A stretch of DNA of 64,000 bases from an uncultured Candidatus Saccharibacteria bacterium. GTDB taxonomy: Bacteria > Patescibacteriota > Minisyncoccia > Phycocordibacterales > UBA12088. The notes beneath the pieces are model-generated. The model did no database searches and was not told the DNA's origin. It saw only the letters and a program-made list of their open reading frames with translations. Position 1 is the first letter of the stretch. Every line of letters starts with the position of its first letter. Location of the stretch: assembly GCA_964411375.1 (NCBI GenBank), contig CAYPKR010000001.1:40227-104226 (forward strand). The letters run 5' to 3'. Positions 11,181 to 44,606 of the stretch are shown piece after piece. A program made the position numbers and the translations under genes.

Positions 11181-11195
11181 CTTTGAGTACGTTTT

Positions 11196-30200: not shown

Positions 30201-31301
30201 GAGGAACGTAAGCGCGTTAAACCATGTGGGATAGATTTCTTTTACATTCGGATCAACGGCGAATGCAAACGCGGCGCGATTCGGGTCTGCGAAGCGCGTA
30301 ATTTCTTTCGCTGCGAGGTATTCTTGAAATTCTGTGTTCTCAAACTCAATCTTGTCGAGATTTTCATGACTCACTTTGAGCAAGGAATACTCATAGAAAA
30401 CATCTATGCCAATGCTCGAGAGTGCGGCGGTTTTTAGATCGGATTTCAGATCATCGAAAAACGTCATAAGCTCATCTTGCGTAATGACATTCGTTTGGTA
30501 GATCTCCATTCCAAGCGCGAGCTTCTCAAGCACGCGCTTGGTGATGGCTCGCTTGTCCTCATTCAGCTTTTTCTCCTCGAGTTCGAGCTTCTTGTAGATG
30601 AAGTGCTCGAACAGCTCATTGCGGGAGACCTTTGCCGCAGCATCCAAACCCTTCACTTTCAAGTAGTCATCGAGATAAAAGAGATATCGCGGAATCTGAA
30701 TCACGAGCATGCGGTGGCTGAACGACATCATTCGGTTGAGAAGTGTGTCGACATCGCGTTCCGCTCGTCCGGCAGAAATAAGGTACTCGCGTATCTGCGA
30801 GCGCGTAAAAGGTGAGATACTTATGAACCGAAATTCAGGAAAAGAATTCGCGTAGCGGCTGACGAAGACCCAGCGTCCCGAAATGAAAAGCTGAAGTTCA
30901 GGATGCGCTTTTGAAATCTCCTCGATTTTTTGTAACACCGCAGGGAACGTGCTCGACTTTACCTCATCGAGCGCGTCGAGTAACAGGGCTTGCGGCTTTT
31001 GCTCTGCGCCAAGAGCGCTATCTATTTGCTGCAGGGCATCATTGTCTCGTAAGCTAACGAGAACAGTGGTCGTGCCTTGAGCTTCCAAATGCTTATGGAT
31101 TTTTTGCAGAAGAAGGGTTTTGCCGATTCCTGGCTCCCCAACAATTAGGCTGCGGTTACCTTGGGCGAGCCCGTCGATGGCGGTTATTTCCTCATCTTCG
31201 AAGATAGCCAGGCCACCGAATTTATCAAAAAACTCCTTCGCTTCGGCGAAGGTGGTATGCACTTTCGTAATGGGCTGGATATAGATGTCTTTGGGGTTCA
31301 T
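27204..31301 (-). CDS. giant NACHT-type STAND P-loop NTPase with C-terminal PD-(D/E)xK-like motif and Lys/Arg-rich tail (candidate antiphage protein)
   Basis: ORF 27204..31367. The likely start is Met 31301 (MNPKDIYIQ), because the first Met abuts the divergent gene. Walker A LIVGEPGIGKTLLL. NACHT-style Walker B ALLLDALDEV. More than 1000 aa of helical-looking sequence. Near the C-terminus KRTDLLVRYGFTGPIVIEVK fits D-x14-E-x-K. It ends KRKTVKNTAKRPKKKTSSHAVRRRSGVRGKK. Confidence 0.8.
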   Translation of the reverse strand: MNPKDIYIQPITKVHTTFAEAKEFFDKFGGLAIFEDEEITAIDGLAQGNRSLIVGEPGIGKTLLLQKIHKHLEAQGTTTVLVSLRDNDALQQIDSALGAEQKPQALLLDALDEVKSSTFPAVLQKIEEISKAHPELQLFISGRWVFVSRYANSFPEFRFISISPFTRSQIREYLISAGRAERDVDTLLNRMMSFSHRMLVIQIPRYLFYLDDYLKVKGLDAAAKVSRNELFEHFIYKKLELEEKKLNEDKRAITKRVLEKLALGMEIYQTNVITQDELMTFFDDLKSDLKTAALSSIGIDVFYEYSLLKVSHENLDKIEFENTEFQEYLAAKEITRFADPNRAAFAFAVDPNVKEIYPTWFNALTFLVDMQPNLLEQFVEFSGLRGNKFKVLDENFFHFLSRVDPRNVPAAFRIALFKDVIEYHRRTRQWISGQITQALPDFYDPSLESQLKVWVTEAESQKDAFRYVPLGNICYVVAYLLRNKISVDKPYWREKLIAYAQDKDENGVLQRHALEALEDLGDPSVIDVLTQTQGDELVSQAFLSACIALDPDHPKTLQHVFEAVARDDFHGRYGLFEFKKRESVVAFLRRFIDDENFRREFLDDTRIFRDKDHVIVDRIKAVADNEIRELSKGVLVKSVHHSVAYNTEQSVFLQGLWDFLSEGDPSFVMDMVRRIKESEDGKTGLYFAHSFFARTIKLEDVQPFVQALLNTGEKYSAFTVMTRIKFSRRKNANELYEACRSLLADDYQKWEEGQAKAAANPQDDRGQGLLQEFRVLLEPEEGKYSTNVFDFYTDHADMLDPLLSNDDKKRIFELLSGTVFKFMDPGKFDLTITAQHDGSKTYTTASAIYIFRDALVAAKRLGFDTSPYRQQIINLIPFAYNEDLRTIFDLVKDIKPEEMTRVFEVYTNKSSDLWRHMPQSFVEAAKQYHITAAAPILKGLIMEEQIEKYVREEALPVFDSLAPDASFLKEVFEKYKDSKDAGDQKLAHIASGLLITSHADADAIRWRLKQIVERAGPFTQVYGARVHSVGDFEDEISHSKTFAKPLMELKYSGFEQDYLDMLNEAFKIWARGPQFHAYGQYMWEVVYAYFDNLKEGRSYDSLQQLETAVANVSEQDGVNWFAGRLAHLRKSYLGYLGKPQTIAEAITKYNDAREFSDKKVRNSEDLFRQVQDALETDLRRWIEGEGAYDILLRKKSPGERRDDEKLVQKTLKMQIENILLKRGFQVEITREAQLLNEKRTDLLVRYGFTGPIVIEVKLTSNSDIQSPRVETIEKSDSYVTMRDAYMQGYGASHGIFLVVKNTDAKNLSTIQEAFQKINKVSVMSFDCYNSPTAPKRKTVKNTAKRPKKKTSSHAVRRRSGVRGKK

Positions 31302-31369
31302 GCAGGTACATTTTCTCACTTTGGACGGTGAGCAGCAAACAAAGGCATATCTTGCTAAAATCGTCATAT

Positions 31370-31999
31370 ATGAGCCAATTCTCCAGACACACCATCGCTG
31401 AATACCTTCCTGAAATTAAGGGCATTTGTGCCTCTGTTGAAGTGGAAATGGCAAGACATGATCTGGACGGTCTCCTCCAGCTGCAACCCCTCCCCGCCAT
31501 TGAGCAGTACGGGCGCTCAAAGATTGTCTACGCCATGATGCTTGTTGGCGAATGGCTTAAGGACACCCCTTTCAGCACGCACTCGACCTATCTTAAGAAA
31601 AACGACAAAGGTGCAAGATGGGCAGACATGCTCAAAATCCTGAACGCCAAAATCCTTGAGTATCAGAATGACGTGCCCGTGATCGTTCTCAATCTATCCC
31701 GAAGCGGACATATCACGCGCACGGTCGACGGTAGTACGTTCGAGCATGATTTTGAAAGCGACGGCTTCAAAAAAGAAATACTTGTTATGCTTCACGAGAA
31801 CGACGGTTATGTGCAAACAAAAGATTTGAAACAACGCACTGGCTCAAAGAGCACTGAATCTGTGGCAAAAACGATTGCAGCTATAAACAACGTACTGAGA
31901 GCAAAACTTCAGCTTCCTGTAAAAGAAAAAGTAATTGGGAGCAAACGTGCTTCTGGGTATCGTCTCAACCCGCTGTACAACATAGTGATCAAAAATTGA
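31370..31999 (+). CDS. winged-helix DNA-binding protein (OmpR/CadC-type C-terminal domain) with unknown N-terminal domain
   Basis: C-terminal SVAKTIAAINNVLRAKLQLPVKEKVIGSKRASGYRLN resembles the trans_reg_C wing (..LR.KL......I.T.RG.GYRL). Divergent from the NACHT gene by about 68 bp. Start could be later (31448). Confidence 0.45.
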   Translation: MSQFSRHTIAEYLPEIKGICASVEVEMARHDLDGLLQLQPLPAIEQYGRSKIVYAMMLVGEWLKDTPFSTHSTYLKKNDKGARWADMLKILNAKILEYQNDVPVIVLNLSRSGHITRTVDGSTFEHDFESDGFKKEILVMLHENDGYVQTKDLKQRTGSKSTESVAKTIAAINNVLRAKLQLPVKEKVIGSKRASGYRLNPLYNIVIKN

Positions 32000-32119
32000 T
32001 ACTTCCCACATCCGGAGTGGAAAAGTGGCTCTATCGTCCCGAAGCTACGGGATTTTTTGCTGATGCCATTCCAGATGCGTTCCATGTAAATATGGTGCCG
32101 CTTGCGCCATTGTTATTAC

Positions 32120-33394
32120 ATGGCTACAAAATTGCGATGGCACACCGACGAACGCAGAGTTAGCGACCTTGTGCCAAATATTAAAAATCCGCGCAAGATG
32201 TCCCCGAAGCAGATTGAGGACTTAAAGCGTTCGCTTAAGAAATTTGACCTCGTCGAGCTACCGGTCGTCGATACAGACAACAAAGTCATCGCGGGACATC
32301 AGCGGCTCATGGTTCTCAAACTCCTTACCCGCGAAAATGATCTCATTCCTGTACGCGTCCCAAATCGCAAACTTACCCAAAAAGAGTACGACCAGTACCT
32401 CCTTGGGAGTAACCGCATCCATGGTGATTGGGACTGGCAGGCGCTTGCGGACAATTTCGATATTGAGACGCTCCTCTCCTCCGGCTTCGACGACATCGAC
32501 ATGGTGCATATTTTTGACGACCTTGAAGTTGAGGATGACGAGTTCGATGTCGAAAAAGAACTCGAGAAAATCAAGAAACCGAAGTCTAAGACCGGCGAGC
32601 TGTATCAACTCGGTAACCACAGAATCATATGTGGCGACAGCACTGACCCCGGAGTTCTGAAAAAGTTGATGGGTGACAAGAAAGCAAGCTCAATTCTTCA
32701 AGACCCACCATACAACATCTCCCTCGACTACAACAAAGGCATCGGCGGCAAGCGCAACTACGGCGGTACAGTTGACGACGCGAAGCCCGACAAGGAGTAC
32801 AAAAAGTTTCTGAAATCGGCTCTTGAGAATGCACTGTCAGTCTTAGAGAAAGACGCACACGTATTCACATACTGCGATCAGAAGTACATCTGGCTCTTGC
32901 AGACCCTCTACGCCGAGCTCGGTATCGCTAACAAGCGCATGTGTTTGTGGGTAAAGAATAATTCCACTCCCACGCCGCAAGTTGCGTTCAACAAGCAGTA
33001 CGAGCCGTGCGTATATGGCACGGTTGGCAAACCGTATCTGAGCGAGAAAGTACTCAATCTCTCGGAAGTGCTCAACAAAGAAATCGGCACGGGCAACCGC
33101 ACACTGGAGGACATCTACGACATGATCGACATTTGGATGGTTAAACGCCTCAACGGCACAAACTATCAGCACCCTACCGAAAAGCCCCCGATGCTCCACG
33201 AGAAAGCCCTGCGCCGTTGCACGAAGCCTGGCAACATCGTGCTGGATTGCTTCGGCGGTTCAGGATCTCTTTTGATTGCATGCGAACAACTTAAGAGAAG
33301 TGCGTACTTGGTCGAACGCGAGCCCATATTCGTTGACTTGGTAATACGTCGCTATGAAAAACTCACTGGCAACAAAGCGAAAAAGCTCAACTAG
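32120..33394 (+). CDS. ParB-like nuclease domain fused to N6/N4 DNA methyltransferase (phage-type)
   Basis: N-terminal sequence pattern resembling ParB-N (NPRKMSPKQIEDLKRSLKKFDLVELPVV). Methyltransferase motifs LQDPPYNIS (motif IV), HPTEKP and DCFGGSGS (motif I). Confidence 0.85.
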   Translation: MATKLRWHTDERRVSDLVPNIKNPRKMSPKQIEDLKRSLKKFDLVELPVVDTDNKVIAGHQRLMVLKLLTRENDLIPVRVPNRKLTQKEYDQYLLGSNRIHGDWDWQALADNFDIETLLSSGFDDIDMVHIFDDLEVEDDEFDVEKELEKIKKPKSKTGELYQLGNHRIICGDSTDPGVLKKLMGDKKASSILQDPPYNISLDYNKGIGGKRNYGGTVDDAKPDKEYKKFLKSALENALSVLEKDAHVFTYCDQKYIWLLQTLYAELGIANKRMCLWVKNNSTPTPQVAFNKQYEPCVYGTVGKPYLSEKVLNLSEVLNKEIGTGNRTLEDIYDMIDIWMVKRLNGTNYQHPTEKPPMLHEKALRRCTKPGNIVLDCFGGSGSLLIACEQLKRSAYLVEREPIFVDLVIRRYEKLTGNKAKKLN

Positions 33395-34118
33395 GTGCTG
33401 GCAGCTTGGCGACCATCGCCTAGTGCAGGGTGACTCCACCGATCCCGAGATCGTGCGGATGGTCATGGGCATCGAGAAAGCGAATCTCATCTGCACTGAC
33501 CCACCATACGGCGTGGCAGTCGCAGAATCAAAACGCAACTTCCGCACGCTCTCAAAAGACAAGAACATCGCCAACGATCACTTGCAGTCTGATGATGAAT
33601 ATCACCAGTTCTCGCGAGCGTGGCTGGAAGCCATCGCTCCGCACCTCGCCAAGAAAAACAGCGTGTACATCTTTAACGCGGACAAAATGGTGTGGTCTTT
33701 GCGCGATGGTATGGTCGATGCGGGATTCAAGGTGGCACAACTTCTCCTCTGGGTGAAGCAACAATCGGTTATCGGACGCTTGGACTATGCCCCGCAGCAC
33801 GAACTCATCGTGTATGGGTGGTTCGGTACGCACCACTTTAGACGCTCTAAAGATAAGTCGGTGTTGTTCTACCCACGTCCGAACAAGTCTAAGCTCCACC
33901 CGACGACAAAGCCGCTCGGGCTAGTACGTCGCCTTATTCTCAACAGCACGAATATCGGTGACGTTGTCTTTGACGGCTTCCTCGGGAGCGGCACCACTCT
34001 CTTGGCATGTGAACAAACGAAACGCCGATGTTTTGGCATTGAACTGGATTCCGAGTACTGCCAGACCATCATCAAACGCTGGGAAAACATGACCGGCAAA
34101 AAAGCAAAACAAATATGA
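33354..34118 (+). CDS. N6/N4 DNA methyltransferase (second, ParB-less)
   Basis: CTDPPYGV, HPTTKP and DGFLGSGTT motifs. Overlaps the upstream gene by 41 nt. Confidence 0.85.
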   Translation: MKNSLATKRKSSTRCWQLGDHRLVQGDSTDPEIVRMVMGIEKANLICTDPPYGVAVAESKRNFRTLSKDKNIANDHLQSDDEYHQFSRAWLEAIAPHLAKKNSVYIFNADKMVWSLRDGMVDAGFKVAQLLLWVKQQSVIGRLDYAPQHELIVYGWFGTHHFRRSKDKSVLFYPRPNKSKLHPTTKPLGLVRRLILNSTNIGDVVFDGFLGSGTTLLACEQTKRRCFGIELDSEYCQTIIKRWENMTGKKAKQI

Positions 34119-34531
34119 AAAAGACCGATCAAACCAAAGAAGCGCTTCTCGAACAGCTACGAAAAACACCTATCGTGCAGATTGCATGCGAGAAGCTCGG
34201 TATCAGCCGCTGGACCTTCTACCGCTGGAAGAAGGAAGATGCTGACTTTGCCAAGAAAGTCGACGAGGCACTTCTGGAAGGATGCCTGCTGGTAAACGAC
34301 CTCGCGGAATCACAGCTCATCTCCGCCATCAAGGATCGCAATATGCACGCGGTCATGGCATGGCTCAAACACCACCATCCTTCGTACAAAACCAGAGTGG
34401 AGATCGAAGGAAAACTTGAGACGGTGCAGGAAATGACCGACGAACAAAAAGAGTTGGTGCAAAAAGCTTTAGAGTTAGCAAATATTCAGCTAAAAGAACA
34501 TGGAAACGATCAGGGACACTGCGACGTTTGA
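34115..34531 (+). CDS. phage terminase small subunit-like HTH protein
   Basis: HTH IVQIACEKLGISRWTFYRWKK, typical of TerS-like HTH_23/terminase_2 proteins. Immediately upstream of TerL. Confidence 0.6.
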   Translation: MKKTDQTKEALLEQLRKTPIVQIACEKLGISRWTFYRWKKEDADFAKKVDEALLEGCLLVNDLAESQLISAIKDRNMHAVMAWLKHHHPSYKTRVEIEGKLETVQEMTDEQKELVQKALELANIQLKEHGNDQGHCDV

Positions 34532-35996
34532 GGCCATTGCGCAGGATCGTCTCGTGCGGCGTACGGTGACGCGCGAGAGTCACCTCATGTTTTTCTACGT
34601 GTATTTCTCCCACTACGTCACGTATCCAATTGCTGAATTTCAGAAGGACATCTTTCGTATCACCGAGGATCAAAGCAACAAACTCGCGGTCATTGTGGCA
34701 TTTCGTGGATCCGGTAAGTCAACCCTCGTTACCTTTTCATATTCCCTCTGGGCCATGCTCGGCGTTCAACAGAAGAAATTCGTACTCATTATTTGCCAAA
34801 CGCAAACCCAAGCCAAGCAACATCTCATTAACCTCAAGCGGGAGCTGGAGAGTAATATGCTGTTGCGTAACGACCTCGGACCCTTTCAGGAAGAGAACGG
34901 TGAATGGGGTGCTTCCGCTTTAGTGTTCCCACAACTGAAGGCTAAGATCATGGCCGTCTCAACTGAGCAGAGTATCCGCGGCCTCCGTCACAACCAGCAC
35001 CGTCCCGACCTCATTATCTGCGACGACCTTGAGGATATGGCGTCAGTAAAAACATATGAGAATCGTCAGAAGATATACAACTGGCTCTGCGGCGAAGTGA
35101 TGCCGCTCGGAGATCGCAGTACTCGGTTTGTAGTGGTGGGCAACCTCCTTCACGAGGACTCGTTGGTCATGCGGCTACGGAGAGACATTGTCGAAGGACA
35201 GCGCAATGGCACTTTCAAGATTTTCCCTCTAATCACCAGTGACGGAGCGATCGCCTGGCCGGGCAAATATCCGACACCGGAGGCTGTTGCCGAGGAAAGG
35301 ATGAAAAGCGGTAATGAGTATGCGTGGCAGCGAGAGTATCTCCTCAACATTATTCCTGATGAGGATCAGGTCATTCAGAAAGAATGGATCCATTACTATG
35401 ATGCCCTGCCCACTCGGCGCGATACCTACCATGGCATCTTTACGGGAGTTGATCTGGCAATTTCTCAAAAAGAAACTGCGGACTATACCGCCATAGTGAG
35501 CGGACTCATTAGCCACGACGAGAATTTCTGCGTGTATATTCTTCCCAACATGGTGAACCGGCGCATGAACTTTCCGGAGACAATCAAACAACTCAAAGAG
35601 ATTAATGCTGCGAACAAGAAAATGTACTCATCGCATATTTTGGTCGAGGAGGTCGGCTATCAAAAGGCGGTAATCGATCAGCTTGCGCATGATTCTCTGA
35701 ATGTCGAAGGCGTCAAAATCAGCACCGATAAGCGCTCGCGTCTTATATCCATCTCCGCCATGATTCAAAGTGGCAAGATAAAGTTCCCTCGGCATGGCGC
35801 GGAAGCTCTCATACGTCAGATTGTCGGCTTCGGAGTTGAGCGACATGACGATCTTGTGGATGCGTTTACACTCCTTGCCCATCATGCTATTCAATTCGAC
35901 CGAGAGGCTCCTCAATTCTTAGTTATAGACCTCACTCCAAACAGATGGGACGATGGGGAGGGTTGGTTTCCGCTGAGTCTCAACACTCGTTTTTAA
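34500..35996 (+). CDS. phage terminase large subunit
   Basis: Walker A VAFRGSGKSTLV. ATPase and C-terminal nuclease-type architecture. DHGAEALIRQIVGF...DDLVDAF resembles the TerL nuclease C-terminus. Confidence 0.85.
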   Translation: METIRDTATFEAIAQDRLVRRTVTRESHLMFFYVYFSHYVTYPIAEFQKDIFRITEDQSNKLAVIVAFRGSGKSTLVTFSYSLWAMLGVQQKKFVLIICQTQTQAKQHLINLKRELESNMLLRNDLGPFQEENGEWGASALVFPQLKAKIMAVSTEQSIRGLRHNQHRPDLIICDDLEDMASVKTYENRQKIYNWLCGEVMPLGDRSTRFVVVGNLLHEDSLVMRLRRDIVEGQRNGTFKIFPLITSDGAIAWPGKYPTPEAVAEERMKSGNEYAWQREYLLNIIPDEDQVIQKEWIHYYDALPTRRDTYHGIFTGVDLAISQKETADYTAIVSGLISHDENFCVYILPNMVNRRMNFPETIKQLKEINAANKKMYSSHILVEEVGYQKAVIDQLAHDSLNVEGVKISTDKRSRLISISAMIQSGKIKFPRHGAEALIRQIVGFGVERHDDLVDAFTLLAHHAIQFDREAPQFLVIDLTPNRWDDGEGWFPLSLNTRF

Positions 35997-36045
35997 GTTA
36001 CCAACTCCGCATATATAGGCCTACGTGTCATCCCTTGAGGAATGA
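35995..36045 (+). repeat. imperfect direct repeat copy A (AAGTTACCAACTCC...TAGGCCTACGTGTCATCCCTTGAGG), starting in the TerL stop codon
   Basis: 14/14 identity plus about 20/26 in the second block with copy B at 43009-43075. A third 10-mer GGTTACCAAC occurs at 37138. Confidence 0.6.
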
Positions 36046-36186
36046 AGTCTGTGGACGTTGGAAATCTGAGGTACGTGCAGAAACTCTTGGGTATCTGTAT
36101 ACAGCTATTGCGAAAGATCGAGAAAGAATCAGCAAAGCCCAAGAACCAGCCATCGCTCCCGTTTCGAAATAGTCGAAAACGAAAAC

Positions 36187-37065
36187 CTAGAAGCCGGTAG
36201 CAGCCGTCGTAATATCTGTGCCGTATCCGAGATCCTTGAATACCATGGTGTAGCCGCTTGAGCCTGTGGGTATCTCAAAGCCAAGGCTGCCTGTGACGGT
36301 TGCATGAGGCTGAAGCGTGAACGTTGGCATTTTCGCATCGGTGAGCACCATGGTGTATGTGGCTCCGGCAGCGTCTTTGAGGTAGAAGAAGAATTCACTG
36401 CACTGTGTTTCTCCACCATCGAGCGCATGACACGTGAGAGGTTTGTCGCCATTGTTGGTGATTGAGACATCGACACGAACTCTCTCGTGTCCTTCTTGAG
36501 GAGTCGAGCCATACTTTTCAGTGTATGGACGTTTGTACCCAGTTACCTTGAGAGAAATGTTCTCGAAGTTCTTTACCTGCGAGATAACGTTGGCGATACT
36601 CGAGCGGAAACACCAGCTGGTGCCAGATTTCTCGAGTGTCATGAGTTGAGTTTCGCTTTTACCGTCAGAGGTATTTTCAACGAGCTGAACCGATGCACCA
36701 TTGTTTTCTTCCAGAACACTCTTGATTTCAAAGTTGGTAAGACGCGTTGCACCCCATATGTTGGTGAGAGCTTTTACATATTCAGTCTTGGTTGCACCCG
36801 TCCTGTCTTGCGGACAGACGAGGTCGTACATCTTGGCGAAATCGCGCTGCTGCGTGTACCGCTCTACCTTGGTTGCGAAGGCAGAAGCGGATGACTGTTC
36901 ACTGTCGGTCAGCTCGCCATCTTGCACCTCTCTGGCAGCAACTTCAGAGTTAGTGGTATCGGTAACTTGATCAGTACGTGAGGCGCTATTGGACCACCAA
37001 TACACACCTCCGCCAAGAACCATAATTGCAACAATTACTGCTGCTATCCAATGGGCTTTATCCAT
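36187..37065 (-). CDS. membrane-anchored DUF4352-like protein
   Basis: N-terminal TM (WIAAVIVAIMVLGGGVYWW), then Ser/Thr/Glu-rich linker, then a beta-rich C-terminal domain (VRVDVSITNNGDKPL). Confidence 0.55.
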   Translation of the reverse strand: MDKAHWIAAVIVAIMVLGGGVYWWSNSASRTDQVTDTTNSEVAAREVQDGELTDSEQSSASAFATKVERYTQQRDFAKMYDLVCPQDRTGATKTEYVKALTNIWGATRLTNFEIKSVLEENNGASVQLVENTSDGKSETQLMTLEKSGTSWCFRSSIANVISQVKNFENISLKVTGYKRPYTEKYGSTPQEGHERVRVDVSITNNGDKPLTCHALDGGETQCSEFFFYLKDAAGATYTMVLTDAKMPTFTLQPHATVTGSLGFEIPTGSSGYTMVFKDLGYGTDITTAATGF

Positions 37066-37229
37066 AGTTTAAAGGGTTTTTATTGACTAATAACGGACCC
37101 TAGTGTTCCTAGCTTAGTTTCGGAGAGTTGCGAAGGGGGTTACCAACAGCGCCCTTTTGAGGCGCAATTTGAGCATAACATAAATATCTAAAGTTTGGAT
37201 ATTCAGTTCTTGGATAGACGCTTAATGGT

Positions 37230-37448
37230 ATGGGAAAGTCTATCCATACCAAGGAGTACAAAATATTTGTTGAGCGTTTGAGAAAGGCACGACTTGAAGC
37301 AGGTCTTACGCAGGTAGAAGCCGCAAAGAAATTAGGTCGCCCTCAATCTCATATCTCCAACGTTGAGACCGGACAGCAACGGGTAGATATCGTGGAGCTT
37401 AAACGGTTCGCGAACCTCTACGGAAAGAGCGTCAGCTATTTCCTCTAA
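37230..37448 (+). CDS. XRE-family HTH transcriptional regulator
   Basis: LRKARLEAGLTQVEAAKKLGRPQSHISNVETGQQ matches HTH_3. Confidence 0.8.
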   Translation: MGKSIHTKEYKIFVERLRKARLEAGLTQVEAAKKLGRPQSHISNVETGQQRVDIVELKRFANLYGKSVSYFL

Positions 37449-37469
37449 ACAACCGCCCCTCTAAGGGGC

Positions 37470-38000
37470 CTAGGCCTCTTTGATTGAAAGCCGTGGCAAT
37501 GCACTAAGCGCACGGATGCTCTCAAATACCGCAACAAGAGCGGTTGTGTACAACACATCGCCAACAAGCATATTTCTTAAAAATGGAAGTCCCAGTTCAT
37601 ACGAGTATAGAAGTCCAGAAATGGACTTCTCATACCATGGAGAGAACGCCCACACCGCACCGTTGGTAATTAAGAAGAAGATAAGTGAGGCTCCGATTAT
37701 TGATAATCCGACGGGCAATAAAGTTCGATATCTTGCAGCAACAAAACTAAGAAGACCAATCAAGACAAATGATCCGTACACTGAGAACAATATTTTCCAA
37801 TCGTAGAATCCGATGAGCACATCAGAGAGAAGAAGCATGAGTATTGGCAGTAGAATCGCCCATTTCCTGCCGAGGTACAAACTCCCAGTAAATGCTATTG
37901 CTGTGATCGGCGTCATATTCGGCGCATGAGGTAAAAGTCGCACGACAATACCGAAGAGAATAAGGATGCATGTTGTTATGATGATATTGTTCTTATTCAT
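37470..38000 (-). CDS. integral membrane protein, possibly ECF-type S component
   Basis: 176 aa, 5-6 TM. Adjacent to DUF4430 and a B12 adenosyltransferase. Confidence 0.4.
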   Translation of the reverse strand: MNKNNIIITTCILILFGIVVRLLPHAPNMTPITAIAFTGSLYLGRKWAILLPILMLLLSDVLIGFYDWKILFSVYGSFVLIGLLSFVAARYRTLLPVGLSIIGASLIFFLITNGAVWAFSPWYEKSISGLLYSYELGLPFLRNMLVGDVLYTTALVAVFESIRALSALPRLSIKEA

Positions 38001-38007
38001 AATTTGA

Positions 38008-38451
38008 CTAGAACTCTGATTTATCGAAATACCATTCGATTGCGTCTCCGCCTTTGACCTGCAATTTGTCCGCCCCGACTTGCGGCATTACTCCGTTCAC
38101 TCTGTACTGCCAATACTCATCATTCACCCCATTCGTTTTATTGCCGATGCTTTCGACAAGTGTTCCGAGCCCGGAATACTCTTTTGTTATGAGTCGTACT
38201 TCTTCTTGCTGAGTATCGAGTTGTTGTAGTATCTCAAGCACAGTTTTAGGAGAAGAAAACTGGACGCTCTTATCAACATAGAGCCCATCAATCGTTACGG
38301 TAACGGTTTGTGTTTGCGTCTGCGTCTGTGAAGATCCTTGTTCTGGCCCCTTGGCAATCTCAATACGGTCTATGGTTGCAGAAATCCCAAAAAGAAGCGC
38401 TGCAACAATAGCTCCTACCCCTACTATTTGCCAAATTGTTTTCTTGCTCAT
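38008..38451 (-). CDS. DUF4430-domain protein (B12-associated)
   Basis: N-terminal TM plus a C-terminal pattern resembling DUF4430 (EYWQYRVNGVMPQVGADKLQVKGGDAIEWYF). Confidence 0.55.
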   Translation of the reverse strand: MSKKTIWQIVGVGAIVAALLFGISATIDRIEIAKGPEQGSSQTQTQTQTVTVTIDGLYVDKSVQFSSPKTVLEILQQLDTQQEEVRLITKEYSGLGTLVESIGNKTNGVNDEYWQYRVNGVMPQVGADKLQVKGGDAIEWYFDKSEF

Positions 38452-38464
38452 AATTTTATAGATA

Positions 38465-38998
38465 CTAATAAGATGGCGATGCCTCTTTTATTTCTTCTTT
38501 TGCTGCCGCATACCGTGCAAGTGTGTACAGAAGGCTTGAGAGACGATTTAGGTATGCGAGCGATTCGCGGGACACCTTTTGTTTTGTAGCCAATGCAATC
38601 ACGGACCGCTCTGCACGTCGCGTAACTGTTCGGGCATAATCAAGAAAGGCCGATATCGCTGTTGCGCCCGGAATCACAAAAGCATGCGGATTGCCAATAA
38701 TGGTTTCAATGTGATCGATAACATTCTCAAGAGCTCCTACACGCACTTTATCAATTTGCTTGTCTGATCCGGCAAGCTCCGCTTGGATGATAAAAAGTGC
38801 TTCCTGCGCATCTCGAATCTCCTTCTGGAAAGATATCTCGCCAGTTGTTCCAGCCGCGAACAGCCTGCATATGCCCAAAAGGGAGTTAAGTTCATCGAGC
38901 GTACCGAGGGCGTCATACACGAGACTGTTCTTTGGAAGTCGTTTTTTGGTTCCAAAGAGTCCTGACGCTCCATTGTCTCCTTTGCGAGTGTACAGCAT
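38465..38998 (-). CDS. ATP:cob(I)alamin adenosyltransferase, PduO type
   Basis: MLYTRKGDNGASGLFGTKKRLPKNSLVYDALGTLDELNS matches the PduO/MMAB N-terminal signature. Confidence 0.85.
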   Translation of the reverse strand: MLYTRKGDNGASGLFGTKKRLPKNSLVYDALGTLDELNSLLGICRLFAAGTTGEISFQKEIRDAQEALFIIQAELAGSDKQIDKVRVGALENVIDHIETIIGNPHAFVIPGATAISAFLDYARTVTRRAERSVIALATKQKVSRESLAYLNRLSSLLYTLARYAAAKEEIKEASPSY

Positions 38999-39003
38999 GT
39001 TGT

Positions 39004-41340
39004 TTAATGCGCCGCAACGGCTTCAGACACTTCAATTGGTAGTGTGATGTCGATCTCGCATGTGCCACCAGCACAAGCAAGTTCGCGCTTTTGTTCCGTC
39101 TCGTCGGCATGTTCATATACAAGCAATTTCGAGTAATCAACGGTGGGTAATTTTGCTGCCATCTCGTCGTGTTGCTTTTTAGTAATAGTCTCGTATGGTG
39201 CAAGACGGTAAATGTGGTCAAATCGCGGAAGGAAGGAAAGTCCGCCAATGATGTCCCAATTCTTTTGTATCCAATCAACGACGCCGATCCACTCATCTTC
39301 ACCCACGGATATTGTCGCGGAAGGGTTGTGTTCTGTGTAATTAAGTTTTACCGTTTTCCAATATTCCAGTTGCTCAAGCGCAGAGAAGTCATCCTTAAAT
39401 TTGGCATCCCCGGGAGACTCAATTGGGAATTCTAGAACGAACGTCGTTGCGGTCTCTTCTGTCTGTCCAACTTCGGGGTGGTATGGAATACCTTGGTCTT
39501 TCAGCATTTTGAACAAAGAGTCGGTCGCCGATATGCGTACGCGGCGAATGTAGTATTTTGCGTGGCGCGGGTGGATGCCGGAAGAGCAATTGAATGTCTG
39601 TGAGACGGTGCCCGAAGGCTTTACGGCAGTAACCGAAAGAGAAGGTTTAATCCCAAAACGTTGAGCATATACTACGTTAGTTTTGACAGCCATATCACGC
39701 ATGGCTCGCATGGTCTCTGGATTGCGTGCGGCTTCAGAATCCCATTGACCTGTTACGGAAACGCCCAAAAGACGCTCCTCCTCACAATGCTTCGTCCAAT
39801 CTTTAGAGATGTAGTTAAAGCGGGATAATGAGGATTGATACGTTCCAAGGAGTGACGCCAAGCGCGCCTTTCGCACTAGACTCTCGTGAGTATCGTTTGC
39901 ACGAGCAATGATTTCTGAGAGATTGCAGAATTGTTTCGATTGCAGGATAATCTCGCCGCACGGGTTTGTACCAATGGGACCTTGCACCACGCCGCCTTCG
40001 TCGATAAATCCAACACTCTTAAAGTATTTTTCTCGCCGCTTTGGCAGGGTGTTTATAAGTGATCCACGATTAAAGATACCTCGCTCTCCGGAACCGCTCT
40101 TCATGAGAGCTACCCACTCCTCCATAAGCTCGTTGCTCGTTGGTCTGGTTCCATACACGGCAGAATTATTGGCGACGGAGCGATGAGGCTCGGTAAGGAA
40201 AAACTGGCCCTTTTTCGCGTCACGCATGTCTGCATCATCCAAGTCAGAGAGGCTAATCATGGCAGTTCGACGTACGCCCCCCGACACCACACATTCGCCG
40301 ATCTTGCAGATAATGTCGTGGACATCTATCGAGCGTAGCCGCCTACCTTGCCGTTTCAATATCTTTTCTCGTGCAAACGCAAGGAGCGACCGAAGCGGTT
40401 CTGGACCAGATGCCTTGCCTCCCATGGTTTTAAGTCGTGCACCTGCAGGACGGACGAGGGAAAAATCAAATTCGATATCCTTTCCTGCGTACCATGTCTT
40501 GAGTCCTAGAGTTAATGCGTCACACCAGCCCTCCTTCGAGTCTGCCACGACGTGAGCTGGTAATTTTTTCTGGATTTGCTTTTGTATCTGCGGCAGTTGT
40601 TCAATATTCTGGCTTTCAACCGCGAACCCCACGCCACATCCTTGCATAGACAGGTACATGATCTCCGCGAAATCCCCTAAAGCCGTTGGCGCGATAAACG
40701 TGCAGTTATACGCACAGGTATTACAGCGTCGTGCAGGTTCGCCTGCAAACTGCATAAGACGCATCGATGGCATAACTTCTTGCTTCAAAACTGCCTCCCG
40801 CACCTCTGCGTATTCTCCCTCTGAAAGTTTCTCCCCAATATTTTCGCGCATAAATGCCATGTATCGGTCAACTGTTTCGAGCCATGTCTCGCGGCGTTTT
40901 TCAGTGTCAATCCAACGGGCATAGGTACGGAGATAGACAAACTCGCCAAGAGGGTTCCCCTCAAAATATTTCTTGCTCTCGACAGTGAGAGCGCGAACAT
41001 GGTCAGGAACCTCACCGAACTCAGATCGTTTCTCCGCTCGTTCCGCTCGGTACAGGATGTATGCCTTAGCAGATTTAAGAAAGCCCAAAAGCATCAGTCC
41101 TGTCTCCACTTCATCCTGCACCTCCTCAACAGTTGGGGTAAAGTGCTCATCTGCAAGTCTCTTTGCGTCGAGTCTTTTTTCAACTGCCCGAGCAACTGTC
41201 TCAGCAGCACTTTCTTCAAACTCGCCAACCGATTTCATTGCCTTGCCAACCGCAATTACAATCTTTCCTCTTTCAAAGGGAACGGTAGCGCCGTTGCGTT
41301 TTATGATGGTAGTAAGTTTGGGAGAAGTGGATTGCGACAT
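39004..41340 (-). CDS. nrdJ: ribonucleotide reductase, class II (adenosylcobalamin-dependent) with N-terminal ATP-cone
   Basis: ATP-cone VIKRNGATVPFERGKIVIAVGKA. Active-site TNPCGEIILQSKQFCNLSEI. C-terminal CxxC (CAGGTCEID). 778 aa. Confidence 0.85.
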   Translation of the reverse strand: MSQSTSPKLTTIIKRNGATVPFERGKIVIAVGKAMKSVGEFEESAAETVARAVEKRLDAKRLADEHFTPTVEEVQDEVETGLMLLGFLKSAKAYILYRAERAEKRSEFGEVPDHVRALTVESKKYFEGNPLGEFVYLRTYARWIDTEKRRETWLETVDRYMAFMRENIGEKLSEGEYAEVREAVLKQEVMPSMRLMQFAGEPARRCNTCAYNCTFIAPTALGDFAEIMYLSMQGCGVGFAVESQNIEQLPQIQKQIQKKLPAHVVADSKEGWCDALTLGLKTWYAGKDIEFDFSLVRPAGARLKTMGGKASGPEPLRSLLAFAREKILKRQGRRLRSIDVHDIICKIGECVVSGGVRRTAMISLSDLDDADMRDAKKGQFFLTEPHRSVANNSAVYGTRPTSNELMEEWVALMKSGSGERGIFNRGSLINTLPKRREKYFKSVGFIDEGGVVQGPIGTNPCGEIILQSKQFCNLSEIIARANDTHESLVRKARLASLLGTYQSSLSRFNYISKDWTKHCEEERLLGVSVTGQWDSEAARNPETMRAMRDMAVKTNVVYAQRFGIKPSLSVTAVKPSGTVSQTFNCSSGIHPRHAKYYIRRVRISATDSLFKMLKDQGIPYHPEVGQTEETATTFVLEFPIESPGDAKFKDDFSALEQLEYWKTVKLNYTEHNPSATISVGEDEWIGVVDWIQKNWDIIGGLSFLPRFDHIYRLAPYETITKKQHDEMAAKLPTVDYSKLLVYEHADETEQKRELACAGGTCEIDITLPIEVSEAVAAH

Positions 41341-41397
41341 ACAGATAGATGCGTTATATTGATAATGGTCTATGCATTTTAATATAGATGACCATCT

Positions 41398-41769
41398 ATG
41401 AGTAAGAAAAAACTGGGGAAAAGAGTCGGCGGAAAGAATAGCGACACGAAAAAAGATGAGCGTACATACCCTCGGCCTACATGGGTGCCCAAAACCGTAT
41501 CAGGCGAGGAGGAATTGTGCCCAGATTGCTTCAAAGTCGTCGGGGAAAGGAGCCGCTACAATCTTGTGTGCATGCTCGGCAAGGCCAAAGAAGGCATGAC
41601 TGTGACTGAACTGACTGAAAAAATGAACCTGCGCCAGCCTACCATTACGCACCACCTTCAGACGCTGCACTCCGTTGATGCCGTTGAAATCGAGCCGCGG
41701 GGGCGGGAGCGAATCTATAAGCTCAACCGGGACGCACACTGCTTTGAAGAGTGTAAAATTCCTTATTAA
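41398..41769 (+). CDS. ArsR/SmtB-family transcriptional regulator
   Basis: ELTEKMNLRQPTITHHLQTLHSVDAVEIEPRGRERIYKL matches the ArsR HTH. Upstream CPDC pair. Confidence 0.75.
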   Translation: MSKKKLGKRVGGKNSDTKKDERTYPRPTWVPKTVSGEEELCPDCFKVVGERSRYNLVCMLGKAKEGMTVTELTEKMNLRQPTITHHLQTLHSVDAVEIEPRGRERIYKLNRDAHCFEECKIPY

Positions 41770-41774
41770 GGTCT

Positions 41775-42995
41775 ATGGAAATTCTTTCGTTTCTTTGGCA
41801 ATATCTCGTTGAAGGTTTTGGACTCTTAATAGCCTATGTCTTTGCAGGTGTTTTTATCTTTCTCGTGTTGCGCCAGTTCCACTCATGGAAAATAACAGCT
41901 GCACTGGTTGCAATCTTTATTGGTGTCTCTATTGCTTTTTATGTGCCGAATGGCATTCCGCATGCGTTTGAGTATCCGTTCGGCTTGCGAACCTTCGGTC
42001 CCTCTACTGGACCTGTGCTCCCATTCACAAACGTAATTGGGTTCTTGAGAAACTTCAACTCATTTGAAAGTGTAGCGAATGTTGCTCGCGACCCTAACGA
42101 TGTGTCACAGATAGCTGCGCGTGATGCTGAAGGAGTAGTTGAAATCAATCTCACTGCCAAGGAGGTCATTGGCGAGATGGCTGATGGGGTGACTTTCAAC
42201 TACTGGACCTTTGATGGATCGGTACCGGGCCCGTTTCTGCGCGTACGCGAAGGAGATACTGTCCGTCTTACACTCACGAACGATCCAACAAGTTTGCACC
42301 ACCACTCTATAGACCTTCACGCTGTCACTGGTCCTGGGGGCGGCGCAGCAGCTACTATTGTTGCTCCGGGAGAGAGCAAGACAATAACGTTCAAGGCGTT
42401 AAACCCGGGAATCTTTATCTATCACTGCGCTCATCCGAACGTTGCCAACCACATGGCGCATGGGATGTACGGGCTCATCCTTGTTGAACCTGAAGGAGGG
42501 CTACCCCCCGTCGATAAAGAGTTCTACGTTGTACAGGGAGAATTCTACAGTTCCGGCTCTCTCGGACGCAAAGGCTTGCAACTTTTTGACCCGCAAGCAA
42601 TGCTCGACGGTAAGCCGCAGTATGTGGTTTTCAATGGGAAGACCGGCGCACTTGTTGGGAATATGAATGTGGACGTCGGCGACACAGTACGTTTCTATGT
42701 CGGGAACGGCGGCGTCAATCTCATTTCCAGTTTCCATGTCATTGGTGAAATCTTCGATCGGGTTTACCGAGAGGGAGATTTAGTGAGTGTTCCCGCCCAA
42801 AGTGTGCAGACCACCCTTATCCCTGCAGGAGGCGCAGCAGCGGTTGAATTTAAGGTCGATTACCCCGGCAATTACATCCTTGTCGACCACGCGCTTTCCC
42901 GGCTTGATCGCGGGGCGTGGGGAGTGCTGCAAGTGAAAGGCGAGGCAAATCCGGCTATTTTTGAGGGGGAGATACAGAGCGGCCACGGACATTAG
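41775..42995 (+). CDS. copper-containing nitrite reductase-like multicopper oxidase (NirK-like), membrane-anchored
   Basis: Type-1/type-2 Cu ligand pattern LHHHSIDLHAVTGPGGGAA and IYHCAHPNVANHMAHGMYGLILVEP. N-terminal TM helices. Confidence 0.7.
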   Translation: MEILSFLWQYLVEGFGLLIAYVFAGVFIFLVLRQFHSWKITAALVAIFIGVSIAFYVPNGIPHAFEYPFGLRTFGPSTGPVLPFTNVIGFLRNFNSFESVANVARDPNDVSQIAARDAEGVVEINLTAKEVIGEMADGVTFNYWTFDGSVPGPFLRVREGDTVRLTLTNDPTSLHHHSIDLHAVTGPGGGAAATIVAPGESKTITFKALNPGIFIYHCAHPNVANHMAHGMYGLILVEPEGGLPPVDKEFYVVQGEFYSSGSLGRKGLQLFDPQAMLDGKPQYVVFNGKTGALVGNMNVDVGDTVRFYVGNGGVNLISSFHVIGEIFDRVYREGDLVSVPAQSVQTTLIPAGGAAAVEFKVDYPGNYILVDHALSRLDRGAWGVLQVKGEANPAIFEGEIQSGHGH

Positions 42996-43008
42996 GGAAT
43001 CAAGGCTA

Positions 43009-43075
43009 AAGTTACCAACTCCAGGGGTCTCGGGACGCTCTGGACTCCTAGGGCGGTCTGCGTCATTCCTTGTGT
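43009..43075 (+). repeat. imperfect direct repeat copy B (AAGTTACCAACTCC...TAGGGCGGTCTGCGTCATTCCTTGTG), 62 bp upstream of the serine recombinase
   Basis: See copy A at 35995-36045. Contains a 26-nt insertion relative to copy A. Confidence 0.6.
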
Positions 43076-44410
43076 TGTATGGAAAACATAGCAACATCAA
43101 GGGTGAACCTCGGCGTGAGGCAGGCTGGGCCAGCACCCATTATCAAGTACTGCCTCTATGCGAGAAAAAGTACGGAGTCAGAGGAACGCCAAATCCTCTC
43201 AATAGACAGTCAGATTAAGGAGATGATTCAGCTCGCCGAGCGCGAGGGCCTTGAGATAGTCGAAATCAAGAGAGAATCACATTCGGCGAAAGAGACAGGA
43301 CAACGTCCAGTCTTCAACGAAATTATCGACGAAATCCGGCAAGGTAAATTCACAGGAATACTCACTTGGGCACCAGACCGTATCAGTAGAAATGCTGGAG
43401 ACCTCGGAAAAATAGTCGACCTCATGGACGCCAAGCTCTTGATAGAGATACGCACCTTCGGGCAACGATTTACGAATAGCCCGAGTGAGAAATTCTTACT
43501 GATGATATTAGGAAGTCAGGCGAAACTTGAGAATGATAACCGAGGTATCAACGTAAAGCGTGGATTGCGAACGAGAGTTGAGATGGGATTGTGGCCTGGA
43601 GTCGCACCGCTTGGATACCTGAATCAAAAGTTGATGGACAAGAAGTGTCAGATTGCGGTCGATACAGCACGGGCACCGATAGTGAAGAAAATGTTCGAGA
43701 AGGTCGCCTACGAACATTACTCAGGCAGAAAGATTTACAACTGGTTAAAGTTTGAACTGAACTTTCATACACGAGGAAATAAGCCACTGACACTCAGTGG
43801 TGTGTATCGTATGCTCGACAATCCGTTCTACTACGGACCATTTGAATATCCACGAGATAGCGGAAACTGGTATCAAGGAAGACATACGCCACTCATCACT
43901 CAAGAGTTATTTGAGAAAGCTCAAGCACAACTAAAGCGTGACAAGATAGTGCGCGAGAATAAAGAGTTCGCCTTCACTAAATTATTTACCTGCGGATACT
44001 GTGGGTCAGGGATATCAGCGGAAGAAAAATGGAAACCGCTCAAAGATGGAACGTCAGCACACTATATTTACTACGGCTGTAGTCGAGCGAGAGACCGTAA
44101 CTGCAAAAATAAATACATTCGAGAAGAAGAACTCATTGACAATCTTCTCAAGATTATGGATGTAGTGAACATCAACGAGCTTGGCATGAGACAGAAGCTT
44201 GAAGATGAAATACGGCGATTCAACAAATTGCAGAAGATAGTGAACGGAAAGAGTGGTAACTCACTAGTGGAAGAAGACGACGTAAACATCAGACAATATG
44301 CTAAGTACCTACTCAAAGAAGGGAGTACATCAGACAAGCGAGAATTACTGGCAAATCTACGAAGCAGACTGAACTACAAAGACAAAAAGATAACGATGAT
44401 TGAGGAGTAG
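43070..44410 (+). CDS. large serine recombinase (resolvase/invertase N-domain, recombinase domain, zinc ribbon)
   Basis: Catalytic YARKSTESEERQ(S), ILTWAPDRISRN, and C-terminal CGYCGS...YYGCSRARDRNCKNK. Confidence 0.9.
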   Translation: MCCMENIATSRVNLGVRQAGPAPIIKYCLYARKSTESEERQILSIDSQIKEMIQLAEREGLEIVEIKRESHSAKETGQRPVFNEIIDEIRQGKFTGILTWAPDRISRNAGDLGKIVDLMDAKLLIEIRTFGQRFTNSPSEKFLLMILGSQAKLENDNRGINVKRGLRTRVEMGLWPGVAPLGYLNQKLMDKKCQIAVDTARAPIVKKMFEKVAYEHYSGRKIYNWLKFELNFHTRGNKPLTLSGVYRMLDNPFYYGPFEYPRDSGNWYQGRHTPLITQELFEKAQAQLKRDKIVRENKEFAFTKLFTCGYCGSGISAEEKWKPLKDGTSAHYIYYGCSRARDRNCKNKYIREEELIDNLLKIMDVVNINELGMRQKLEDEIRRFNKLQKIVNGKSGNSLVEEDDVNIRQYAKYLLKEGSTSDKRELLANLRSRLNYKDKKITMIEE

Positions 44411-44413
44411 AGA

Positions 44414-44448
44414 AAACAAAAACAGCGAACAAAATTCGCTGTTTTTGT
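44414..44448 (+). terminator. intrinsic terminator after the recombinase
   Basis: AAAAACAGCGAACAAAATTCGCTGTTTTTGTT. Confidence 0.8.
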
Positions 44449-44518
44449 TACAACTTTTTAGGCACTCGGGTCACAGCTTACTCGCTATTACTCGGGTCAT
44501 GCCGATAAGAAATTGTCT

Positions 44519-44606
44519 TGGCGGAGGGAGAGGGATTCGAACCCTCGGTACCTTGCGGCACTCCTGTTTTCAAGACAGGTGCACTCGACCACTATGCGAT
44601 CCCTCC
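44519..44606 (-). tRNA. tRNA-Ser (TGA), long variable arm, CCA encoded
   Basis: Reverse complement GGAGGGATCGCATAGTGGTCGAGTGCACCTGTCTTGAAAACAGGAGTGCCGCAAGGTACCGAGGGTTCGAATCCCTCTCCCTCCGCCA. Confidence 0.9.

Follow-up and report, generated by a model that had tools for sequence, protein, structure and literature searches.

Bacteria of the Candidate Phyla Radiation (CPR), or Patescibacteria, have tiny genomes, and the means by which they exchange genes are poorly known. The DNA analysed here is a stretch of 64,000 nucleotides (nt) from an uncultured Candidatus Saccharibacteria bacterium (assembly GCA_964411375.1, contig CAYPKR010000001.1, positions 40,227 to 104,226), hereafter called the window. 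It appears to carry an integrative island of 17.5 kb (27056-44524) that belongs to a family widespread among these bacteria, with a large serine recombinase gene, rec, near its right end. Our subject is the conserved non-coding element directly upstream of rec, to which we gave the name EL, together with the partial copies of EL that lie several kilobases further upstream.

Among described systems, the tycheposons and islands of the type of phage-inducible chromosomal islands (PICI) resemble the island in integrating at the 3' end of a tRNA gene, in having the integrase adjoin the tRNA, in forming tandem arrays and in carrying defence, nutrient and metal cargo, some of them with terminase genes and no complete virion module. 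Tyrosine recombinases are found in about 97% of elements of the tycheposon type (bioRxiv 10.1101/2020.12.28.424599). The CPR family differs from them in its large serine recombinase, in a repeat of only 6 nt, in its hosts, in EL and in a module of two DNA methyltransferases followed by TerS and TerL. A literature search for a CPR island with a serine recombinase, a terminase or a tRNA-Ser gene found no specific description. From the comparison of related loci we propose, with modest confidence, that EL serves as a cargo slot and that its copies arose when the resident EL recombined, in a single crossover, with an EL-like sequence carried by incoming circular DNA.

The conserved element upstream of rec

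The initial annotation of the window had singled out a 7-kb segment next to the recombinase gene, flanked by imperfect direct repeats (copies A and B) and holding a third, related site (copy C). The features of this region are listed below; related loci are cited by L numbers, and RFQR01 is a relative to which we return.

34500-35996, + strand: TerL gene (terL), part of the backbone module; phrog_38 match, E=3.5e-81
35995-36041, + strand: copy A, a shortened paralogue of EL, between the terL stop and the 52-aa gene
36042-36200, + strand: gene of 52 amino acids (aa) (MKSVDVGNLRYVQKLLGICIQLLRKIEK...), conserved in four lineages
36187-37065, - strand: DUF4352 gene, part of the backbone in the closest relatives, with other genes in its place in L003-5
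37108-37149, + strand: copy C, a stand-alone left part of EL; profile match E=0.12
37230-37448, + strand: XRE-family regulator, the last backbone gene common to the window and RFQR01
37450-43009: variable cargo, where homology with RFQR01 is interrupted
37470-41340, - strand: genes for DUF6580, DUF4430, cobalamin adenosyltransferase and an NrdJ-type reductase, within the variable cargo
41398-41769: ArsR, within the variable cargo
41775-42995: NirK (TIGR02376 above cutoff), within the variable cargo
43002-43078, + strand: copy B, a canonical EL, directly before the rec start codon at 43079
43079-44410, + strand: rec, large serine recombinase with Resolvase, Recombinase and Zn_ribbon_recom domains

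About 150 related loci were compared, and EL was found to precede rec in essentially all of them (nhmmer E down to 1e-23). Its parts come in the order Box1, often Box1', Box2a, Box2b, a variable stretch, Box3 and the start codon. Box1 is AGTTACCAAC, in its family form (T/A)AGTTACCAAC and commonly followed by [AG], while the frequent Box1' is a second, degenerate copy of it (TTAYCTAC or CTACCAC). The family consensus of Box2a is CTYGGGACGC and that of Box2b TCT[GA]GACTCC; Box3, GCGTCAT, is invariant before rec, and the start codon lies 10-14 nt past it. In copy B, Box1 occupies 43010-43019, Box2a (CTCGGGACGC) 43029-43038 and Box2b (TCTGGACTCC) 43039-43048, and a variable spacer then leads to Box3 at 43060-43066.

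The spacing within the downstream part of EL is rigid. Among 97 promoter-like sites, 91 of them before rec and six before a gene of 110 aa, T[GAT]GAC and GYGTCAT are separated by 14 nt in 92 cases and by 13 nt in the other five; the distance from T[GAT]GAC to CATNNN is likewise a fixed 17 nt in 92 of the 97, with a spacer of variable sequence, and the start codon follows 7-9 nt further on. Distances from Box1 to the -35-like box cluster at about 20, 31 and 40 nt, that is, at whole helical turns. We infer from this layout that EL is a promoter/operator acting at the DNA level, with -35/-10-like boxes 17 nt apart and the start codon where transcription would begin. Its downstream part, composed of T[GA]GAC, 14 variable nt and GYGTCAT, would act like a -35/-10 promoter and give a leaderless or near-leaderless rec mRNA, and Box1 would be a motif of the protein-binding type, phased by whole helical turns from that promoter. 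A scan for the sigma-70 consensus was negative, which speaks against a promoter of the canonical kind. A structured cis-regulatory RNA or riboswitch was ruled out, since Rfam gave no match at the gathering threshold, and none in the copy B region even at E<=10, and RNAalifold returned consensus energies of -0.33 and 0 kcal/mol for the two EL alignments and showed neither compensatory pairs nor covariation in either part of the element.

The 110-aa gene (MKDDDIEAIIDASKHFKYHE...) lies about 400 nt upstream of rec in L025, L038, L047, L048, L055, L060 and L062. A separate copy of the promoter boxes precedes it, Box1 is contained in its final codons (ELPT), and its product may be a directionality or regulatory factor.

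Copies A and C are relatives of EL

The 14-nt core AAGTTACCAACTCC, said to match at 14 of 14 positions in copies A and B, does so at 35995-36008 and 43009-43022, in both cases on the + strand. It is present exactly twice in the window, and no further site appears even when two mismatches are allowed. Copy A does begin inside the terL stop codon (TAA, 35994-35996), copy B does end at the start of rec (ATG, 43079), and the third copy at 37138 was borne out (GGTTACCAAC), as were the identities given for the enclosed genes (DUF4352, XRE, DUF6580, DUF4430, cobalamin adenosyltransferase, class II ribonucleotide reductase, ArsR and NirK, the last with TIGR02376 above cutoff). The second block that the two copies had been described as sharing was retained in part: GTCATYCCTTG agrees at 10 of 11 positions, 18 nt past the core in copy A and 44 nt past it in copy B, but the portion TAGG.C..C...TCAT is out of register in copy B without an indel.

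The argument that a repeat of some 55 nt would be unlikely to recur by chance was overstated. The window contains 20 maximal exact direct repeats of at least 14 nt, 15 of which are exactly 14 nt long; the flanks of the A/B pair score at p ~0.04, with two other 14-mer pairs in the window equal or better; and seven of 100 shuffles give at least two matches to the 14-mer within two mismatches. On in-window sequence statistics alone, the A/B repeat is ordinary and not beyond chance. These figures are the case for regarding the A/B match as a chance similarity of two intergenic stretches. We nevertheless find that explanation scarcely credible, as three things set out below speak against it: the profile matches, the orthologous positions of the copies and their conservation in other genomes.

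A profile of EL was built from the element upstream of rec in 56 other genomes, with the window excluded, and was compared with the whole window. Copy B was the best match (E=4e-24), copy A the second (E=0.08) and the copy at 37138 the third (E=0.12), followed by a fourth at E=1.4; copies A and C both lie on the rec strand between terL and rec. In copy A, Box1 (AGTTACCAAC, 35996-36005) lies over the terL stop and is followed by GTGTCAT at 36025-36031, Box2 being absent. The CATCCC hexamer of copy A ends 7 nt before the ATG of the 52-aa gene, the same geometry as at rec and at the 110-aa gene, and its Box1 and GTCAT box are suitably spaced to drive that gene. Orthologues of copy A occur in four lineages (the window, L003, L006/RFQR01 and L089), all with a constant gap of 45 nt from the terL stop to the 52-aa gene, and single-copy relatives have Box1 at the terL stop just as copy A does. 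In RFQR01 the sequence directly before copy B, TACTCGCTT, corresponds to the last codons of terL, and the duplication therefore takes in everything from the 3' end of terL up to and including the promoter. Copies A and B are genuine diverged copies of one conserved control element, and the repeats are not dispersed elements but locus-specific copies of that element, in keeping with the initial annotation.

The 52-aa gene itself is under purifying selection in the four lineages: differences concentrate at third codon positions (26 versus 9 and 7, for example). Its product has a basic C-terminus, and 14 nt of the gene are shared with the 3' end of the DUF4352 gene, which is convergent with it. 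Neither the 52-aa nor the 110-aa protein matched a Pfam or PHROG family, and homology of the 52-aa protein with the 110-aa protein of the other clade was tested and not found.

Copy C is made up of CCTAGCTTAG (37108-37117), Box0 TTGCGAAG (37128-37135) and Box1 GGTTACCAACAG (37138-37149), and is the 3' end of a larger conserved left part of EL, CCTTAGCTTAG-N10-TTGCGAAG-N3-5-AGTTACCAACAG. This left part is contiguous with Box2/3 and rec in L031, L033, L088 and L124, and is found standing alone, kilobases upstream, in ten lineages. The stand-alone composite occurs in L002, L003/L089, L006, L028, L037, L041, L042, L064 and L126, and its conservation ends directly after CCAACAG. In five of the ten lineages (L037, L041, L042, L064 and L126) the 3' end of a minus-strand gene lies 5-50 nt past the stand-alone left part, and in those five the left part marks a boundary and is not the promoter of a downstream gene. 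One conserved leftward gene as the explanation for the stand-alone left part was considered and rejected, the adjacent genes being mutually unrelated.

These observations bear on a second explanation for the copies, namely that they are regulatory paralogues only. EL would then be a promoter-operator at which no recombination takes place, A and C would have arisen by ordinary duplication and been retained for the co-regulation of the 52-aa gene and the XRE region with rec, and cargo would turn over by homologous recombination anchored in the conserved flanking genes. The fixed position of the copies, 7-9 nt (from CATNNN) before three unrelated genes (rec, the 110-aa gene and the 52-aa gene), is what such an explanation predicts, as are the rigid two-box spacing, the phasing of Box1 by helical turns and the fact that the A/B duplication takes in the whole element and the terL 3' end and not just the core. 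However, in the five lineages named above the stand-alone left part has no downstream gene to regulate, and the unrelated leftward genes beside it fit no better. We consider this explanation unlikely, and further evidence on both sides of it comes from the comparison of loci with and without cargo.

Empty and occupied loci

Empty sites, which had been suggested as a check on the repeat-bounded segment, were found in related genomes. In L014, L095-L104, L119, L121, L125 and L152, for example, terL, EL and rec are contiguous, with 63-180 nt between terL and rec. The shortest of these gaps, of 63 nt, is that of L014 (...GTT TAG TTACCAAC...GCGTCATTCCTTAGTGT ATG), while L152 shows the empty arrangement with a rec that is 91% identical to that of the window. 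L148, with a rec 95% identical, has the TAG of its upstream gene within Box1, and the upstream stop codon forms part of Box1 in several compact loci, of which L014 and L148 are examples. Between terL and rec, individual loci have as little as 63 nt or as much as 13.4 kb, and the cargo of different genomes is unrelated; occupied loci, with a gap of 1-13 kb, hold genes for copper resistance, resistance-nodulation-division (RND) efflux, ATP-binding cassette (ABC) and two-component systems, type I restriction-modification, KAP NTPases and restriction enzymes.

The close relatives L033 and L037 provide a direct comparison, in that L037 carries a complete type I restriction-modification cassette of 9.83 kb exactly between Box1 and Box1'. 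Positions 1-82 of L037 match 9831-9912 of L033 at 94%, and positions 9910-11289 of L037 match 9910-11289 of L033; the junctions have a 3-nt overlap (ACA) at the edge of Box1 and Box1-like sequence at the far junction. A breakpoint on a 3-nt overlap, with little flanking homology between the junctions, would be hard to produce by recombination of the RecA type, which counts against the copies being regulatory paralogues only.

Comparison with RFQR01 defined the cargo of the window. Its rec is 96% and its TerL 86% identical to those of the window, and homology extends over 31353-37449 and resumes at 43010, which is Box1 of copy B; the variable cargo is therefore 37450-43009 (5.6 kb). The stretch 36042-37449 (the small open reading frame, DUF4352, copy C and XRE) is backbone common to the closest relatives. 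As judged from this alignment, the 7 kb consists of two modules, a backbone piece (36006-37449) and the variable cargo (37450-43009). The proposal of a 7-kb repeat-bounded cassette accordingly holds in that DNA has been inserted between terL and rec, but not in that the segment is one cassette. In L002, divergence starts directly after Box1 of copy C.

The proposal that EL is a cargo slot builds on these two states: in empty relatives the upstream stop codon, Box1, the promoter-like boxes and rec are contiguous, and occupied relatives have foreign genes directly upstream of EL, with the cargo in several lineages bracketed by two Box1 copies or by two whole-element copies. In the window, copies A, C and B delimit a small module (the 52-aa gene and DUF4352) and, after the XRE gene, the 5.6-kb cargo (the NrdJ/B12 operon and ArsR-NirK). 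A single crossover would insert the incoming circular DNA and leave an element on both sides. That crossover may be site-specific at Box1 and catalysed by the adjacent rec, or it may be homologous; the copies may also be simple regulatory duplications.

Several observations weigh against a cargo slot at EL. The left edge of the cargo, as seen from RFQR01, is the XRE stop codon at 37449, where no copy of the element is present, and most cargo-bearing relatives outside the window clade (among them L015, L028, L031, L088, L115 and L117) have no recognisable second copy after terL. Both facts, an edge at the XRE stop codon and not at a repeat, and a second copy missing from most cargo-bearing loci, would be expected if the copies had a regulatory role only. 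Additional upstream Box1 matches across the family exceed the control only about twofold (33 on the rec strand versus 17 on the opposite strand), and all the stand-alone left parts could descend from one ancient split and not from repeated site-specific events. Furthermore, rec would need two unlike types of site, Box1 having only a weak resemblance to the arm proximal to its attachment (att) site, AA[AG]TTGTCAA, and neither copy A nor copy B yields a promoter in a simple scan for the sigma-70 consensus. The idea that loci with cargo generally keep a trace of Box1 behind terL was rejected, as such remnants are convincing only in the window clade and L093.

Searches outside the set of related loci gave little. 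A scan of viral contigs for the terL end of the window clade together with Box1 and Box2 (TTTTRAGTTRCCMAC-N5-30-GCTCTRGACTCC) returned no match, and searches for the exact TerL and rec proteins were equally empty. Those for NrdJ, RuvX and NirK retrieved only Logan contigs of SRR12487045, which are 100% identical to the window, and no alternative junctions were seen in those contigs. The Logan assembly of SRR12487045 splits at 41348-41377, between nrdJ and arsR, into two contigs that overlap by 30 nt; this break hints at strain heterogeneity at that boundary.

As regards the cargo itself, the copper nitrite reductase NirK (41775-42995, above the TIGR02376 cutoff) is accompanied by an ArsR regulator and is carried here on a CPR mobile island. 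A copy with 75% identity, in the opposite orientation, is present in the related island L003/L004 (20517-21494). In L148 a copper-resistance module with a ATACCCCCTAGGGGGTAT operator lies downstream of the 95% identical rec, on the + strand (5706-11920). The same module is upstream of rec and on the - strand in the L010 comparison (RFQR01), and the EL-rec unit is inverted relative to the cargo.

The recombinase and its attachment sites

The remaining features of the island are as follows.

27051-27151, + strand: island left end, with the attL core TGGCGG at 27056-27061 and then the conserved left arm
27204-31367, - strand: STAND/NACHT NTPase of 1387 aa (Pfam and NCBIfam matches)
32102-35996, + strand: backbone module (Pfam and PHROG matches)
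32102-33394 and 33354-34118, + strand: two N6/N4 DNA methyltransferases of the backbone module
34115-34531, + strand: TerS-like gene of the backbone module
44415-44518, + strand: terminator hairpin (44415-44449), then the right arm
44519-44606, - strand: tRNA-Ser(UGA), its 3' end TGGCGG (44519-44524) being the attR core

The product of rec has the composition of a large serine recombinase, with PF00239, PF07508 and PF13408 all above cutoffs and a catalytic-type motif, YARKSTESEERQ, near the N-terminus. It matches the Protein Data Bank (PDB) entries of SPbeta SprA/YokA and TP901-1 integrase as well as the integrase family phrog_95, and is predicted to be the island's integrase, placed at the island's right end. 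All 8000 scored candidates in the rec search were significant, and the relatives come from at least 535 species-representative CPR genomes among the 600 matching stretches listed. The names of the homologues place the window in Patescibacteria (CPR). The best 80 of these relatives (loci L009-L088), from many CPR lineages, have 71-97% identity in rec. For TerL the identity in those loci falls to 39-57%, and for TerL and the methyltransferases together to 39-67%. That rec is so much more conserved than its neighbours suggests either a very recent spread of the integrase or unusually strong constraint.

Comparison of loci places the probable att sites of rec at the 3' end of tRNA-Ser (44519) and at 27056, so as to bound the 17.5-kb island. 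Of 40 loci scanned, most have a tRNA-Ser gene, with any of several anticodons, past rec on the opposite strand, typically at a distance of about 100 nt. The right arm between the rec terminator and the tRNA 3' end is conserved and contains two copies of ACTCGGGTCA followed by CCGATAAGAAATTGTC (44502-44517). The left arm (TGCAGGTGGGTTAAGTGCC ... TTTTGAGGCACGCGGGTCGG) comes directly after the attL core TGGCGG; a profile of it matches the window at 27051-27151 (E=1.3e-21) and nowhere else in it. The same arm also follows TGGCGG in L057, L068, L070, L073-75, L006 and L089, and it is found 0.3-16 kb upstream of rec across many lineages. In L057, minimal units of about 2.9 kb lie in tandem, with the last unit abutting the real tRNA and with the junctions ...ATTGTCC TGGCGG TGTACACGCG... 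and ...ATTGTCC TGGCGG TGTACACGCGTTCAGTG..., from which it follows that the att core is TGGCGG. The window thus shows what is expected of a genomic island integrated at a tRNA gene: tRNA-Ser after rec, TGGCGG at both 27056 and 44519, conserved arms, and host genes outside. No repeat of the tRNA-Ser 3' half longer than chance was found elsewhere in the window, and a repeat of chance length only is consistent with a serine integrase. To our knowledge, a tRNA gene is an unusual target for the class of large serine integrases.

The placing of the att sites bears on two further explanations for the repeats. The first, that A and B are rec's own attL and attR and the 7 kb an excisable element, in the manner of developmentally excised elements or serine-integrase prophages, is suggested by direct repeats that adjoin a large serine recombinase gene, copy B abutting its very start. 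Yet rec lies outside the A-B segment, EL is unsplit upstream of rec in genomes that are free of the insert, part of the segment is conserved backbone, and the evidence just described independently puts the att sites at tRNA-Ser and 27056. Excision would moreover restore no gene, because the terL stop is retained either way, and the similarity of A and B extends to both sides of the core, unlike that of a hybrid attL/attR pair. An attL/attR pair of a serine integrase at A and B was accordingly rejected as very improbable, and A and B are in all likelihood not the main substrates of rec.

The second explanation is that A and C are relics of a tandem array of islands at tRNA-Ser from which the recombinase genes have since been deleted. 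Tandem islands or double rec genes, each with its own EL, do occur (L057, L093, L118/L120 and L130/L131). The window, however, has no arm remnant and no extra TGGCGG junction between 27151 and 44502, copy A sits exactly at the terL stop like the single element of compact relatives, and random deletions would not stop at the same nucleotide of Box1 in ten lineages. We regard such an origin as improbable.

An extension of the cargo-slot proposal is that rec uses two kinds of site: the tRNA-Ser att site, by which the island moves, and Box1, by which circular multi-gene cassettes for defence, metal resistance and nucleotide metabolism would be captured and released. We put this forward as a tentative possibility, and a rather doubtful one. 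Visual comparison of Box0 (TTGCGAAG) with the reverse complement of Box2a (GTCCCAAG), the two lying around Box1, shows agreement at five of eight positions. When the att-proximal arm was scored with the Box1 matrix, it exceeded the 95th percentile of the null distribution in only 20% of loci; identity of Box1 with the motif of that arm was rejected, the resemblance being weak and lineage-dependent.

Some further traces were noted around the att sites. At 26993-27055, left of the attL core, CTGATAATTCCATTGTCTTC resembles the end of the right arm and AAAGTTGCCAATC resembles Box1; these motifs may be the trace of an older element or of the original flank of attB. A tRNA-Ser-like remnant (TTGGCGGAGAGGGAGGAATCC...) is present directly left of the left arm of the L006 island (3906-4030) and suggests decayed earlier integrations. 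Each minimal unit of the tandem array in L057 (9615-17260) consists of the left arm, about 290 nt of non-coding sequence with GAGACA repeats, EL, rec, one gene and the right arm.

Gene content of the island and its surroundings

The initial annotation had treated the genes upstream of the repeats as a phage-derived block into which a cassette had been inserted, or with which it had recombined. That block is a part of the island itself, to which the two methyltransferases, TerS and TerL belong; dozens of loci have the same gene order ahead of rec and in its orientation. Among all annotated open reading frames from 27204 to 44410 (Pfam, NCBIfam, PHROG), none encodes a portal, capsid, tail or lysis protein, and a complete prophage was ruled out for want of any structural or lysis gene. 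With this terminase module and without virion genes, the island is possibly a phage satellite with a terminase of its own, and its gene content (rec, XRE or LexA-like regulators, TerS and TerL) is compatible with a PICI-like satellite.

The STAND/NACHT NTPase is defence-type cargo in a second variable slot, directly after the left arm; relatives have ThsB-TIR, DUF2188 or LexA-like genes at this position instead. Outside the island lie RuvX, a tRNA-binding protein and PilM on the left and Pif1, RuvA and FolC on the right. Elsewhere in the window, a perfect palindrome of 38 nt overlaps the 3' end of tRNA-Leu (19591-19670), and a repeat of 104 nt with 87% identity lies between the tRNA genes of a tRNA cluster (22364-23103).

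Implications

The comparison reveals a very widespread family of islands, with a serine integrase that would act at a tRNA gene and a rec gene in at least 535 species-level genomes, and with a defined slot in which defence systems, metal resistance, a B12-dependent ribonucleotide reductase and nitrite reductase appear to be swapped. Should Box1 be a second recombination site, the family would represent a new cassette-capture system, a platform driven by a serine recombinase and comparable to integrons or to the staphylococcal cassette chromosome (SCC), inside a mobile element that would be spreading among ultra-small bacteria; so compact an integrase (about 443 aa) with short sites could also interest genome engineers. 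Should Box1 not be a recombination site, EL would still be a sharply defined candidate promoter/operator of a CPR mobile element.

Comparison with known systems

SCC and SCCmec elements share with the window a large serine recombinase, CcrB being the best NCBIfam match to rec, though below cutoff. They also share multi-gene cargo between short imperfect direct repeats, with several tandem modules possible and some of these without a recombinase gene, and a left repeat that overlaps a conserved gene at its 3' end and stop codon, the gene being rlmH in SCC and, in the CPR islands, terL or some other upstream gene. In SCC, however, the ccr genes are inside the cassette and the repeats are the att sites of Ccr, whereas here rec lies outside the repeat-bounded cargo and its att sites would be at tRNA-Ser; hosts, target gene and repeat sequence are unrelated, and recombination at Box1 is a proposal only. 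An SCC element was ruled out, as the CcrA, CcrB and CcrC models score far below their cutoffs (132.8 versus 900 bits, for example) and as the target and gene placement differ.

Integrons likewise have a capture site immediately upstream of the recombinase gene, beside a promoter, an array of foreign genes and a short core shared by the junctions. Their IntI is, however, a tyrosine recombinase that is divergently transcribed, in contrast to the serine recombinase here, and their cassettes are mostly single promoterless open reading frames with a folded attC, in contrast to multi-gene cargo of mixed orientation with no conserved hairpin. An integron was ruled out on the serine type of the recombinase and on the lack of conserved pairing in either element alignment (RNAalifold).

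From the prophages that use serine integrases (phiC31, Bxb1, TP901-1 and SPbeta with SprA), the island differs in having no portal, capsid, tail or lysis genes and in having minimal relatives of only about 2.9 kb. It is like them in the domain architecture of the recombinase and in the position of the integrase gene beside one att site, and rec is detectably similar in sequence to both SprA and the TP901-1 integrase.

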